Shown here: one piece after another, positions 11,098 to 30,903 of the stretch | Numbering within the stretch: position 1 is the stretch's first letter | Layout: the number at the start of each line of letters is the position of its first letter | IMG/VR virus record: IMGVR_UViG_3300006153_000386 | Location: 32,438 to 96,437 of that record | Reading direction: 5' to 3' (one strand) | Origin: a virus | Lineage: Duplodnaviria > Caudoviricetes | Length of the DNA stretch: 64,000 nt | The notes under the pieces: generated by a model | What the model was told of the DNA's origin: nothing | The model's input: the letters and a program-made list of their open reading frames with translations, nothing else | Database searches by the model: none | Made by a program: the position numbers and the translations under genes

Positions 11098-11936
11098 TTA
11101 ATCCGATTTATTATTTAGCAAATCATCAATTTCAACATTATTTTCTCTACATAATGACAAAGCTACACTGATTGCGTTTGCTAATTCTGAATCATCAATC
11201 ATATTCAATGTCTTAGGTTTCTTTCCAGTAGTGTTAATATGATTGGTAATTCTTGAATTTATATTGATACTGTGTTTGTATAAAAGTTCTTTCTTGTAGT
11301 TATTCCATGCTTTACCAAAGTCTCCAATAGAAGAAGCATACGCTCTAACCAAAGAATTAATCAAAGGCCTATCTGCCCATTCAAGATTTTTCTGTGCAAG
11401 AAGATCGTTCTCATTATTTAAAGAAACAATTTTCTTTTGTTTTTCCTCAATATTAACAAGCAATCCTTTAACTAGCGATTTCTGTTCATCTGGAACATCT
11501 GAAAAATATGTATTTACCATTAGTTCAACATTATTAATATAACCACCTGTTTTACGGATTGTAGGTAAAACCTCAGATGTAACCCAATGTTTAAAATCTT
11601 TTGCTGTGTCAAGTTCACTTCCAAATATTAAAGCATATAGTGCAGATTCATTAATTATATATCCACCCCTTTGACCTAATTCTTTGATATCAAACTCAAC
11701 ACCTGTGAGGGGATGAGTTTTATCATAAAGAATATAATCATCTTCGTGACACTGTTGCTTTAATACATCTGAATATCCTTTCTTGTAACCAAGTGCTTCA
11801 ACAACATCTTTTCCTACAAATAAACTTCATTATTTATAAGTATAACTCTTATTTTTCCGAATTTTTTGTTTTGAAAAATTTTAAGGATATTATTAATGTT
11901 AGAAGTTCCTTTATTGTCATCTTTTTTCTTTCTCAT
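11098..11936 (-). pseudogene. BRO-N family antirepressor, frameshifted near the 5' end
   Basis: FVGKDVVEALGY...INESALYALIFGS...WVTSEVLPTIRKTGGY reads in frame with the 11098..11520 ORF; ATG with RBS at 11936 leads to an early stop. Confidence 0.75.
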
Positions 11937-26422: not shown

Positions 26423-27782
26423 AATATATTTATCTCCTTCATTCTTAATTTGGTATTGATATGTGTTCTTCTTATTACTTCTACATTCCGATGTGAAATA
26501 ACTTATAAGTTTTCAAGTTATATTTGTTGGTAGTAGGGTAGTAGATATCTGATAAATCCTAAATAATGTAAAATATACCCCATTATCTAAATACTGTTTG
26601 AGGAAAATGATTTTTTATATTGGGATGGATATTTACTATTTCTCCATTTAATTGCTTTTTACATAAAAATAAGACAGATGAGAAATCGTCTGTCTTAGTA
26701 GAAAATAATATTTTGCATCGTAATCATCAGATTGTGAGTATGTAGGATTCTGAAAATCATATAATTTGATTTTTGCATTTGTATGGCTTCTTGATCTGAA
26801 TTGGCAAATACACATATCCAATCCCATTTTTTTTCAGTTCTGTGGTCAATTTGTATCTGGTATTTGTTCATTAATATAACCTCCGTTTGTGTTTGTGTGA
26901 ATCAATTGGTACAAGAATATATTCTCTTTCTGGTTGGAAATATTATTGAAAAATGAGGTGATGTGTATGAGATTAATTTATGAGTTCGGTGGGAGAGTAG
27001 TTTTGATGGAACAATAGAATGTAAAAGTATTGATTTTACAGGATATTTTAAGATTTTGATGAATGATTTTTAAGTGTGATTTTGTATATGATTTCTTTTC
27101 TTGAGTGCAATTTTAGAGTAAGTTCGGAATAATGCTTATTTTTCAAGGGTTTTGGAAGATTTTTGTATTGAATTTTGTGGTTTGGGGAGTAGATTTGAAT
27201 TGTCAGAAAATTTATTTTGTATTGATTTATAAGAATTTTGAGAAATGACACCGAATAGTATTCCGAATTGTTTTTGTGAATTGTTTATGTTTCGGACACA
27301 ATTTTTAGGGGTGATGTATGGTTGGAATAGATAGGTGGTTTCTGGAGGAAAATAATCTTTTTTAAAATGTAAACCTACCCCTTATACATATAATCCGTTA
27401 ATAAAACCGCTTATTTCCTGTATTTTTCAGTTGCAGTTTTTGGTGATTCATAACTTTTTTGTTTGCTCTAATTTGACTATTTCTATAACTTAATACAAAC
27501 GTATGTATTATATTAATCTGTATAAATTAATATGATTAAACATCAATACTGTATTATTCGAATAATACAATTTGTTCGGTACAAATATCAAGTTTGTTTA
27601 CTATAACTAAACAATTAGTTTGTATATTCTATACAAATCATACCTGAAAAATAAAAATGAAATCACCAATACTATACTTTTTGTTTAATAAAACTAAACA
27701 ACATTTATTCTCATATTTCTATCAATCAATGCTCACACATATTCGTTGAAACTCTTATATCCTTTTCCGGTGAACCATTTTT

Positions 27783-27986
27783 CTATTGATTCTCTTTTAT
27801 ATATCCATCTCTTTCCAACTTTTCCACAATAGCGGTAGTAGTCCATCTATTCCGGTTCATTACACTATCAACCATAGCTTTTTCAACAACCTCATAAATT
27901 GACTTCTGATATTTTACAGTGTATGCAACCATGTTTTCTTTATCGTATTTATCATTAGCTTTTCTTTTCGCTTCATTGTAAGCCAT
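27783..27986 (-). CDS. Ribbon-helix-helix / Arc-like regulator
   Basis: MAYNEAKRKANDKYDKEN..., same family as 39475 and 40607 ORFs. Confidence 0.65.
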   Translation of the reverse strand: MAYNEAKRKANDKYDKENMVAYTVKYQKSIYEVVEKAMVDSVMNRNRWTTTAIVEKLERDGYIKENQ

Positions 27987-28280
27987 CTATAAAAATACCT
28001 CCACAAGCCCATATTTTCGATTTTAAGGCACGTTATACGTGTTTATATATAAATGTATCATACAACAATTTTTCTGTCAATCTGGGCAAAATACAACACT
28101 ATTTTACCATGATTCATATTGTGCAATATGTATAAAAAACAACATTAAAATTTATGCAAAAATAAAGTTAAAATACACGTATTCCGTGAAAAAATAGGTG
28201 CTTGCATTAGATTACATTTTGAAGATGGTAAAACAGCTACGTTTTCTAAAAAGTCAAAATTAGATTATGAAGTATTATAA

Positions 28281-28339
28281 ATCCCCTGATGAGCAACGGT
28301 GAGAGCCGACGAAACTACCCAAACAAGGGTAGTCGGGAT
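28281..28339 (+). ncRNA. Type I hammerhead ribozyme
   Basis: Stem I ATCCC/GGGAT; core CTGATGA; stem II containing CGGT-GAGA-GCCG; GAAA; stem III ACTACCC/GGGTAGT; GTC cleavage triplet ending at 28334. Confidence 0.9.
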
Positions 28340-28470
28340 AGTAACACGATCCTACACAAAGCACCACAAGCACATTGATAATTTAATAGACTTTGCATCT
28401 AAGTTGTGATATACTATCTATATAACAGTATCAGCAATATATACAATCACAACGAAAAGGCGGTGATAAT

Positions 28471-28731
28471 ATGTCATTATCCAACGATGATTTAAAAGCG
28501 ATTGAATCAATGTTAGAACCGATAAAGCGAGACATAAGAAGTATACAGTTGACGCTTGAAAACGAGACTAACCGCAATATTAAGATTATTGCCGAAGGAC
28601 ACCTTGATTTAAGTCGTAAACTCAATGACGCTTTAAAGGTTGACAATGAAAAAGAAATGCTTTTAATCCGTGTCAATACACTTGAAAATGAATTGCGCAG
28701 AATAAAAGAACGTATTGAACACATAGCATAA
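28471..28731 (+). CDS. Coiled-coil hypothetical protein with own promoter and terminator
   Basis: RBS AAGGCGGTG; TTGCAT / TGATATACT upstream. Confidence 0.7.
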   Translation: MSLSNDDLKAIESMLEPIKRDIRSIQLTLENETNRNIKIIAEGHLDLSRKLNDALKVDNEKEMLLIRVNTLENELRRIKERIEHIA

Positions 28732-28761
28732 GCAGCTACATAATAAAATATCACAATCCAC

Positions 28762-28802
28762 GGTGTAAAGTCTATTGAATTATTAAGGCTTTACACCTTT
28801 TT
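28762..28802 (+). terminator. Intrinsic terminator
   Basis: GGTGTAAAG...CTTTACACC followed by T-run. Confidence 0.75.
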
Positions 28803-28821
28803 AACTTATGTATCAATAAAA

Positions 28822-29034
28822 TTAAAATTCTCTATAAGCAATGCAATTTGATGAACCAGTGCATTTTGATATTTTCTTATTATATGTACAAGTTTTATTT
28901 GACTTGTCATAAAAAATACATCGTCTTTTATCTGGTCTATCTGTTTTTCTTTGATATGGTATATTTTCAATATGCCATCCTTGAACACCTTCCAATAATG
29001 CGCTTGCTTTATCAATATCTTTATGTTTTGCCAT
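28822..29034 (-). CDS. Small Cys-containing hypothetical protein
   Basis: ORF with AAGG RBS. Confidence 0.45.
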   Translation of the reverse strand: MAKHKDIDKASALLEGVQGWHIENIPYQRKTDRPDKRRCIFYDKSNKTCTYNKKISKCTGSSNCIAYREF

Positions 29035-29070
29035 ATGATCACAACCTTTCTTTTGTTACGTTTGATAATA

Positions 29071-29268
29071 TTACAATGGTTTTATAGCATAGTCGATTTT
29101 GTAGCCAATTACTGACAAAATACGGTTAGCGTCATCAATATTAAAGTTTTTCTTCCTGAATAATTGATATAACGCTTGTCGTGATATATCCAATTTATCA
29201 GCAATAAAATTATATTTAATTCCTTTATTATTTATAAAATCATCAACAAGTATTGCTAATTCGTTCAT
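29071..29268 (-). CDS. XRE/Cro HTH regulator (paralog 1)
   Basis: IADKLDISRQAL...KKNFNIDDANRILSVIGY. Confidence 0.8.
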   Translation of the reverse strand: MNELAILVDDFINNKGIKYNFIADKLDISRQALYQLFRKKNFNIDDANRILSVIGYKIDYAIKPL

Positions 29269-29466
29269 GAATAATACACCTTCTTTCTTTGAAGAAATAG
29301 CATATCAGAAAAAGTATCTACTTGCAAAACTGCAATCCCTTGGAGTACCAACTGAAGAAATAGTTAAACATTAATAATTAAATTCAATCAAAAATAAAGA
29401 GTGTAAATCCTATTGAGTTTTCAAAAAGGGTTACACTCTTTATTAGTACCTTGAAAAGTCAATACT

Positions 29467-29736
29467 TTATTCCGGTTTATGATCTGCTTGATTGTCTGGG
29501 ATATGCTCCATTATATCTCCAGGCTGACAATGTAATTCATTACATATTTTGTCTATAACTTCCATACTGACATATTCATGTTTGGACAGTTTGGCAATAG
29601 TGGCAGACGATATATTTATACGTTGTCGAAATTCTTCCTTGCCTATTTCACGGCGGTTAAGTAAATCTAATAATCTATAATATTTAATCATTATATCACG
29701 TCCTTTATTGTTTGGTAATTGATTATAGCATATCAT
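29467..29736 (-). CDS. XRE HTH regulator (HTH_26-like)
   Basis: ISSATIAKLSK...IDKICNELHCQPGDIME. Confidence 0.85.
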   Translation of the reverse strand: MICYNQLPNNKGRDIMIKYYRLLDLLNRREIGKEEFRQRINISSATIAKLSKHEYVSMEVIDKICNELHCQPGDIMEHIPDNQADHKPE

Positions 29737-30127: not shown

Positions 30128-30415
30128 AGCATTCAGGCAAGCGGTAAAGCCGTGGGATTCAATTCTAACTTGCCATTTGGTAGAAATACCGAAAAAGAAA
30201 AGTCCAGTGTTACCAGCACCAGACTTTTCAGGGAAAACAAGTAAATGTTTCCTCACTTCTAAACAATTTGAGGTTATCACATTTTCTTGTATCTGTCAAT
30301 CGGCAGATCAATTTCCCAAAAATAGAAGTAAGGATTGTACCTTGACAACTGAAGAAATGGGTATAATAGAGTGTAGCAAAATGTATCTGATTTTGGTATA
30401 CTATATGTATCAAAG

Positions 30416-30652
30416 ATGAAAGGCGGTTACAATATGAGTAATAAAGAACGTGTATTACAGTTGATTGATGATATACCAGATCAAAAACTGATTTATGTTG
30501 TTGATATGCTGAATAGCATTAAAAATCTGCTTGTTGAAGAAGTTGATCCAGACGAATGGGACTTGCAAATGATTAATCAGGCACAAGAAGAGAATGACGG
30601 TACAACAATTTCGTTTGAAAAATTGGCTGATGAATTAGGGGTTACATTATGA
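30416..30652 (+). CDS. Antitoxin paired with RelE-like toxin
   Basis: Small acidic ORF overlapping the toxin start; similar to 48499..48717. Confidence 0.7.
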   Translation: MKGGYNMSNKERVLQLIDDIPDQKLIYVVDMLNSIKNLLVEEVDPDEWDLQMINQAQEENDGTTISFEKLADELGVTL

Positions 30653-30903
30653 GCAAATATACAATAACCTTTGAAAAGGCAGCCGAAAAGTTTTTGAAAA
30701 AGCAAACACAAAAATTACAATCAAACATATTAACAGCAATATATAAACTTCCTGATGGTACAGATATTAAACGGTTAAGGGGTTATGATCTTTATAGAAT
30801 GCGTGTTGGAAATGTTAGAATAATTTATTCCATACATGAAGAAGTAAGGATTATAAACATTGAAAATATAGACAACCGTGGAGATGTGTACAAAAGATTA
30901 TAA
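30649..30903 (+). CDS. relE: RelE/ParE family toxin
   Basis: YRMRVGNVRIIY...IDNRGDVYK. Confidence 0.85.
   Translation: MSKYTITFEKAAEKFLKKQTQKLQSNILTAIYKLPDGTDIKRLRGYDLYRMRVGNVRIIYSIHEEVRIINIENIDNRGDVYKRL

Follow-up and report, generated by a model that had tools for sequence, protein, structure and literature searches.

A type I hammerhead ribozyme family in phages of gut Lachnospiraceae, with a copy probably orphaned by deletion in a 96-kb phage contig

Hammerhead ribozymes have been known in phages since 2011 and their role is still unproven. The window considered here, a stretch of 64,000 nt lying within a 96-kb IMG/VR phage contig, raises the question at a single locus, where the initial annotation described a complete type I hammerhead (CUGAUGA, GAAA and GUC with three stems), placed it at the start of the rightward arm and proposed that cleavage fixes the 5' end of the early transcript or shields it. 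Is this motif a genuine ribozyme, and does it head a transcript or act elsewhere in the phage RNA?

Structure of the motif

The hammerhead was confirmed at exactly the positions first assigned to it, with the layout AUCCC-CUGAUGA-(18-nt stem II)-GAA-(A-CUACCC-AAACAA-GGGUAG-U)-C-GGGAU. Its parts are as follows:

28281..28339, + strand: type I hammerhead ribozyme, recognised by core, stems, folding, shuffles and a leave-out covariance model
28281-28285 / 28335-28339, + strand: stem I, AUCCC/GGGAU, 5 bp
28286-28292, + strand: hammerhead core CUGAUGA
28293-28310, + strand: stem II, 18 nt
28294..28309, + strand: stem II pair 10.2/11.2, a C.A mismatch (C28294, A28309) beside an AA bulge (28295-96)
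28311-28313, + strand: G12A13A14 (GAA)
28314-28333, + strand: stem III, 7 bp with loop AAACAA
28334, + strand: C17, with predicted cleavage between 28334 and 28335

All conserved core positions are present (C3 U4 G5 A6 N7 G8 A9, G12 A13 A14, the A15.1-U16.1 pair formed by A28314 and U28333, and H17, here C28334). The three core-adjacent pairs, 1.1-2.1, 10.1-11.1 and 15.1-16.1, are all Watson-Crick (C28285-G28335, G28293-C28310 and A28314-U28333), and pairing at these positions served as a rejection criterion in Perreault et al. 2011 (PMC3088659). Stem I is open while stems II and III are closed by loops, and the topology is therefore that of type I. The minimum free energy structure given by RNAfold (-20.4 kcal/mol, z -3.4) comprises stems I and III together with the four inner pairs of stem II. 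A descriptor search of the 64-kb window returned this site alone, and dinucleotide shuffles yielded 0.032 loose matches per 64-kb window, with equally good matches in 0 of 500.

The description of the hammerhead as complete holds for the core and the three stems but not for the second pair of stem II. This stem consists of a G-C pair, a C-G position occupied by C.A, the AA bulge, CGGU/GCCG and a GAGA loop. Among 21 copies with the same stem II architecture the window stands alone in carrying a mismatch at 10.2/11.2, the pair being C-G or U-A in all of the other 20, and L017, L019, L020 and L021 have GCCGGC at the place of GCCGAC in the window. Apart from the mismatched base, the window hammerhead is identical to copies in relatives, and an exact search for its stem II gave no match. 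Within this architecture the inner pairs covary (CGG/CCG, CAC/GUG, CGC/GCG), and a sister version of stem II (GUAC...GAC) covaries at every pair. Activity is not necessarily lost through a lone C.A mismatch when the adjoining G10.1-C11.1 pair is intact.

Stem I has 5 bp and neither loop nor bulge, and no consistent contact partner for loop II, nor any consistent extension of stem I or pseudoknot with the flanks, was found. With so short a stem I and no evident partner for loop II, fast cleavage at cellular Mg2+ is not assured. Three A residues immediately 5' of stem I are strongly conserved in related copies (1.3-1.7 bits per position) and these, together with the conserved loop II types, may supply a tertiary contact. 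We conclude that 28281-28339 is a genuine type I hammerhead, its self-cleavage being predicted from the sequence.

The family and its gene context

The window copy is, by sequence, a member of a large UCCC-GGGA type I hammerhead family, which occurs in the phages, prophages and other mobile elements of gut Lachnospiraceae. About 130 distinct copies were found in IMG/VR phage contigs and in genomes of gut Lachnospiraceae, in addition to a branch in the Nitrosopumilaceae. A pattern fixing stem I and the core alone matched 63 IMG/VR stretches and, among GTDB genomes, another 73, the genome matches deriving mostly from mouse and human gut Lachnospiraceae (Roseburia, Acetatifactor, Dorea, Lacrimispora and Hungatella), with the Nitrosopumilaceae forming a separate group. 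Among 55 distinct sequences, 95.8% of the cells expected to pair were paired, compared with 33-43% when the partners were slid, and double-sided changes occurred in 107 cells compared with 27 in shuffles. Such changes were seen at 8 of 15 pairs, stem III pairs showing four to five pair types, and the fifth pair of stem I, which was unconstrained in the search, also covaries (A-U, U-A, C-G and G-C).

A covariance model (R1) trained on 49 members, with the window copy and its close relatives left out, scored the window copy at 41.1 bits (E 9e-10) and found no other match in the 96-kb contig. Seed members scored 46-77 bits and the left-out close relatives of the window 40-43 bits, and the model also picked up further copies with other stem I sequences. 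Moreover, syntenic loci located through two neighbouring genes carry a hammerhead at the same place. One of these (L004) has wholly different stems II and III that are still paired, and another (L018) has a different stem II together with the same stem III. Position N7 varies freely, being U or A in the syntenic L004, L018 and L020 and U, A or C across relatives, and two interchangeable stem II modules occur in the family.

None of the hammerhead models of Rfam reaches its gathering cut-off for the window copy. RAGATH-1 (RF03152), the only one to respond, gave 31.5 bits in a permissive local search of 331 nt, compared with a cut-off of 56.3, and its upstream hairpin was mispaired; Hammerhead_1 (RF00163, cut-off 34 bits) gave no match at E<=10 either there or over the whole contig. 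A scan at gathering thresholds of the whole contig, window included, and of 29 related loci never called the family; it returned only tRNAs, one pistol and one RAGATH-1, all elsewhere. The Rfam hammerhead models thus overlook, at their thresholds, an abundant family of phages and Lachnospiraceae. A search of the phage GenBank collection yielded no DNA match to window positions 27700-29200.

Some members occur in unusual settings. One IMG/VR contig carries eight type I hammerheads within 4.3 kb, approximately one per gene junction (L069:2360-6636, - strand). Two phages mix ribozyme classes: in one, a pistol ribozyme (L031:11753-11820, - strand) lies about 300 nt from a family hammerhead on the same strand (11396-11455) and, in the other, a bona fide RAGATH-1 hammerhead (L071:5600-5672, - strand) lies 1.3 kb from a family hammerhead. 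At two loci (L067:190-640 and L101:6900-7349) a single 98-aa gene has family hammerheads on both sides, and cutting at both would release a monocistronic RNA that begins with a 5'-OH and ends in a 2',3'-cyclic phosphate. In the archaeal branch (Nitrosopumilaceae; L088, L089, L094, L098, L113, L117, L119, L120, L122 and others) stem I and the core are identical to those of the family, stem II is GUCCG-UGAAAYU-CGGAC, and GGAGGUGAAA usually follows less than about 10 nt after the ribozyme with a start codon a few bases further on.

The position of the family relative to genes is regular. In 84 of 123 non-redundant copies an ORF of at least 40 aa on the same strand ends no more than 15 nt before stem I, compared with 6% of random positions, and its stop usually abuts stem I, most commonly as TAA-A-UCCC. 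A ribosome-binding site and start codon follow within 150 nt downstream in 92 of 123 copies, at a median of 38 nt, such that the typical site lies directly past a stop codon and about 20-45 nt ahead of the next ribosome-binding site. On this arrangement, the ribozyme would be transcribed within a multi-gene or read-through RNA, starting a few bases past the upstream stop. Self-cleavage after C17 would leave an upstream message whose 3' end consists of the folded ribozyme with a terminal 2',3'-cyclic phosphate, and a downstream RNA beginning with a 5'-OH on GGGAU; here the chemistry given in the initial annotation is right, for a site that is itself predicted. The net effect would be transcript processing, or insulation, between cistrons. 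In close relatives of the window no intrinsic terminator is present, and the ribozyme would therefore most likely form the 3' end of the small-gene message and uncouple it from the next unit. Judged by its position, the most likely role of the family is intercistronic processing, 3'-end formation or insulation and, at the family level, the general idea of a phage hammerhead that defines RNA ends is reasonable.

In close relatives (alignment of L017-L021), whose layout is taken as ancestral, a divergent 67-aa gene is followed by operator repeats, a promoter (TTGACA-17-TATAAT in L018-L021 and TTGCAT-17-TATAAT in L017), a leader with a ribosome-binding site, a small gene, a hammerhead at the stop of that gene, a spacer of about 35 nt, a conserved promoter module and further genes. 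The small gene upstream of the hammerhead varies between phages, in the range 57-86 aa. The corresponding region of the window contains:

27783..27986, - strand: divergent 67-aa gene, likely a DNA-binding regulator
28029..28041, no strand assigned: ACGTTATACGTG, a palindrome resembling an operator, within the divergent control region; conserved in L017
28174..28188, + strand: operator-like TACACGTATTCCGTG, with the deletion junction right after it, from alignment with relatives
28188..28280, + strand: 5'-truncated remnant of a 74-aa gene, its last 30 codons and stop with no start, from translation and ORF comparison
28335..28353, + strand: GGGAU...AUCCU, which may form a hairpin at the 5' terminus of the 3' cleavage product (-4.6 kcal/mol, z -1.9)
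28372..28415, + strand: conserved promoter module, comprising a CATTGATAATTTAATA block, -35 TAGACT (28387-92), a 17-nt spacer, TGa and -10 TATACT (28410-15)
28471..28731, + strand: 86-aa coiled-coil-like gene served by the downstream promoter, with homologues in related loci

On its left side the window matches L017 up to TACACGTATTCCGTG and then jumps into the last 30 codons of a 74-aa gene of the L019/L021 type, which is present as a full ORF in L019, L021, L112 and L150 and nowhere in the window. The start-less remnant, which takes the place of the family's usual upstream ORF, reads EKIG...DYEVL and ends EKIGACIRLHFEDGKTATFSKKSKLDYEVL before its stop, and its TAA abuts the hammerhead. The deletion has removed the upstream promoter, the leader and codons 1-44 of the small gene, and searches of IMG/VR and the JGI metagenomes did not find the junction sequence. 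Upstream of the window ribozyme there are weak promoter-like sites alone, for example TTAAAA-18-TAAAAT at 28145-28174, and no intrinsic terminator is predicted between the units, from the control region to the downstream promoter.

Our best explanation, to which we assign a probability of about 0.6, is that the motif is a genuine hammerhead of this family, intercistronic in its relatives, that has been orphaned and has acquired a mismatch in the window. On sequence grounds the copy is probably an orphan left by the deletion, weakly transcribed or not at all and with little function in this phage, although the weak site at 28145-28174 or a phage-encoded RNA polymerase could still transcribe it. 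As a single base separates this hammerhead from copies in relatives, the deletion may date from recent times and be neutral, or may even have been selected.

Promoters, neighbouring genes and alternative readings

The promoter at 28387-28415, of the sigma-A type (TAGACT-17-TGa-TATACT), lies downstream of the ribozyme, and transcripts from it would begin near 28420 and so would not include the ribozyme. The module is conserved at L004, L017-L021, L049, L093, L099, L112, L121, L129 and L150, and a sister module, TTTACA-17-TATAAT, is found at L097, L125, L127, L130, L148 and L151. The hexamers are retained and the spacer is variable, and the module is therefore best taken as a promoter that has an upstream element. 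The boxA-like motif reported about 30 nt beyond the ribozyme does exist, as CATTGATAAT at about 28372, but it forms the upstream part of this conserved promoter module; in read-through transcripts the block may also act as RNA. Boxes of the type ACCTTGAMAA occur at window positions 28371, 29447, 30338, 31349, 39881 and 41017. Those at 28371 and 31349 constitute the upstream part of a module ending TAGACT-17-TGn-TATACT, and those at 29447 and 30338 are followed, at different distances, by TATACT-like -10 sequences. All six have the look of elements upstream of one type of phage promoter, and are not proven nut sites.

The gene order small ORF, hammerhead, promoter and 86-aa-gene homologue is retained in L004. 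At loci with an 86-aa homologue and no hammerhead (L005-L016) no known ribozyme was found at the equivalent spot, and replacement by a pistol ribozyme was not supported. The divergent gene annotated as RHH is present, encoding the 67-aa protein, but it has no Pfam RHH match and sub-threshold winged-helix matches only; PHROGs and Pfam searches returned nothing above threshold for either the 67-aa or the 86-aa protein, and the RHH assignment is accordingly not confirmed. Operator-like sites of the (C)ACGTATWMCGTG type (28029-28041 and 28174-28188) are shared by the window and L017, whose 67-aa proteins are 91% identical, while L018-L021, with 67-aa proteins 65-77% identical, carry CTAGGTATTACGT-type sites that overlap a consensus TTGACA-17-TATAAT promoter. 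That the repeats differ in step with the protein suggests, from sequence comparison, that the 67-aa protein is their cognate repressor. Further along the window, at 30416-30903, a RelE/ParE-type toxin gene (PF05016, phrog_1213) follows a small gene whose antitoxin-like match to DUF6290 is sub-threshold, and the two likely form a toxin-antitoxin pair of the early region. Leftward helix-turn-helix genes lie between the rightward units at 29071-29268 (- strand; borderline HTH_3, 22.8 bits with a cut-off of 23) and 29467-29736 (- strand; clearly of the Cro/CI type, HTH_26, E 9e-18).

These surroundings bear directly on the reading in which the hammerhead heads the early rightward transcript, with cleavage trimming the leader and setting or protecting a 5'-OH end ahead of the boxA-like site, an end that is perhaps folded into the GGGAU...AUCCU hairpin. 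The -10-like element proposed for it, TATTATAA (28274-28281), is present but constitutes the Val-Leu-stop (GTA TTA TAA) end of the gene remnant, and in relatives it is likewise the end of an ORF. A start 7 nt past it lies within the ribozyme and leaves out the 5' strand of stem I, and the hammerhead could therefore not form. The native upstream promoter is deleted in the window, the well-conserved promoter sits downstream such that the main rightward transcripts would lack the ribozyme and, in relatives, the ribozyme trails a gene rather than heading a transcript. What speaks for this reading is the cleavage chemistry, which leaves a 5'-OH, the weak promoter-like site at 28145-28174, a CTTTGAYAA block 25-40 nt downstream that resembles the Firmicutes rrn boxA and recurs in many members, the precedent of the halovirus HF1/HF2 hammerhead (PMC3088659), and the capacity of the 3' product to form a 5'-terminal hairpin. 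This hairpin, in which GGGAU pairs with AUCCU 10 nt downstream, is mutually exclusive with stem I, and the complementary YCC is enriched just past stem I across the family (66 of 125 copies, compared with 11 of 59 in a control region). After clustering related flanks the values are 16 of 36 and 6 of 36 clusters (p 0.02), amounting to less than half of the lineages, and for the family we consider the 5' hairpin a weak lead. Overall we regard the reading as unlikely. In the window's phage the ribozyme probably does not start or protect an early transcript and, the copy being most likely an orphan of the deletion, the function first proposed for it is largely unsupported.

A second possibility is that the copy is fully functional and insulates the downstream unit from read-through out of the divergent control region, with RNase J degrading the 5'-OH product so that expression would depend on the downstream promoter alone. 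The lack of an intrinsic terminator between the control region and that promoter would fit, as would a hammerhead equal to those of the relatives bar one base and intact in its core and adjacent pairs. RNase J1, moreover, reportedly degrades 5'-OH RNA (Collins et al. 2007), as it does in Bacillus subtilis with the product of the glmS ribozyme. The loss of the strong upstream promoter, however, leaves little that would call for insulation, the stem II mismatch is peculiar to this copy, and the frequent 5' hairpin would argue for protection rather than decay. We consider full function doubtful.

A more elaborate scheme, to which we give similarly little credence, starts from the upstream stop. 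Since this abuts stem I, both stem I and the core would be hidden under a ribosome that is terminating, and in part of the family the GGGA end of the 3' product can refold into a 5'-terminal hairpin which excludes stem I. In combination, these two features could render cleavage gated by translation and irreversible, and could leave the downstream message 5'-protected. The conserved ribozyme with its 3' flank would also constitute a portable boundary for gene exchange. Were the portable boundary real, small accessory genes would be swapped between Lachnospiraceae phages at such sites, and the window would represent a boundary after deletion.

It is very improbable that stem II (CGGU-GAGA-GCCG) serves as a hairpin for protein binding in common with CGGT-AAA-GCCG at 30142. 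The latter hairpin is indeed present, and the window contains two CGGT-N3-5-GCCG sites where 0.21 are expected. Two syntenic relatives (L018 and L004), however, have exchanged the whole of stem II for an unrelated GUCUU-UGAAAAUU-AAGAC, with pairing alone being kept, and the likeness to 30142 is therefore no sign of a shared protein site; the covariation of the inner pairs also fits an RNA helix and not a sequence-specific site. Finally, a chance match to the hammerhead consensus, for which only the sub-threshold Rfam scores could speak, is practically eliminated, having been refuted by the 500 shuffles, the compensatory changes in syntenic homologues and the E value of the leave-out model.

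Comparison with known systems

The window locus alone adds little, and its relatives are useful through a clean architecture, found repeatedly, in which a consensus promoter under operator control is followed by a small variable gene, a hammerhead at its stop and a second conserved promoter. This architecture is intact in two isolates cultured from the mouse gut, Roseburia sp. 1XD42-69 and 'Bacterium 1xD42-87', represented by loci L112 and L150, and the window provides a natural deletion variant for comparison.

The glmS ribozyme and RNase J1 of Bacillus subtilis offer, purely by analogy, another case of a downstream RNA with a 5'-OH in a Firmicute and of decay dependent on the 5' end, although that ribozyme is of another class, ligand-dependent and located in a 5' UTR. 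RAGATH-1 (RF03152) is the best Rfam match and shares the type I topology, the short stem I, an A/U-rich 5' stretch and a phage context; in contrast to it, the window copy stays below the cut-off, lacks the defining upstream hairpin and has a stem II of 18 nt instead of about 7.

The HHphage hammerhead of the haloviruses HF1 and HF2 (PMC3088659) likewise lies in an early region just upstream of genes, and its cleavage site is no more than 3 nt from the mapped 5' end of the major early transcript. It sits 13 nt before a start codon on that mapped transcript, whereas in the window a promoter intervenes between ribozyme and gene and no upstream promoter is left.

The closest parallel is provided by the prophage hammerheads of Perreault et al. 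2011 (PMC3088659). That paper describes hammerheads flanking single, non-constant genes in prophages, type II being as frequent in bacteria as types I and III, with in vitro cleavage demonstrated for clusters in the Lachnospiraceae member Clostridium scindens; the passages considered here make no mention of a stop abutting stem I, of AAA 5' of stem I or of two stem II modules. The window copy differs in being single within its 96-kb contig, in preceding a promoter rather than a ribosome-binding site, and in having lost its upstream gene and promoter. Common to both are the consensus core, an intergenic site beside small non-constant genes, hosts among the Lachnospiraceae and a proposed role in cutting long phage RNAs into gene-length messages.
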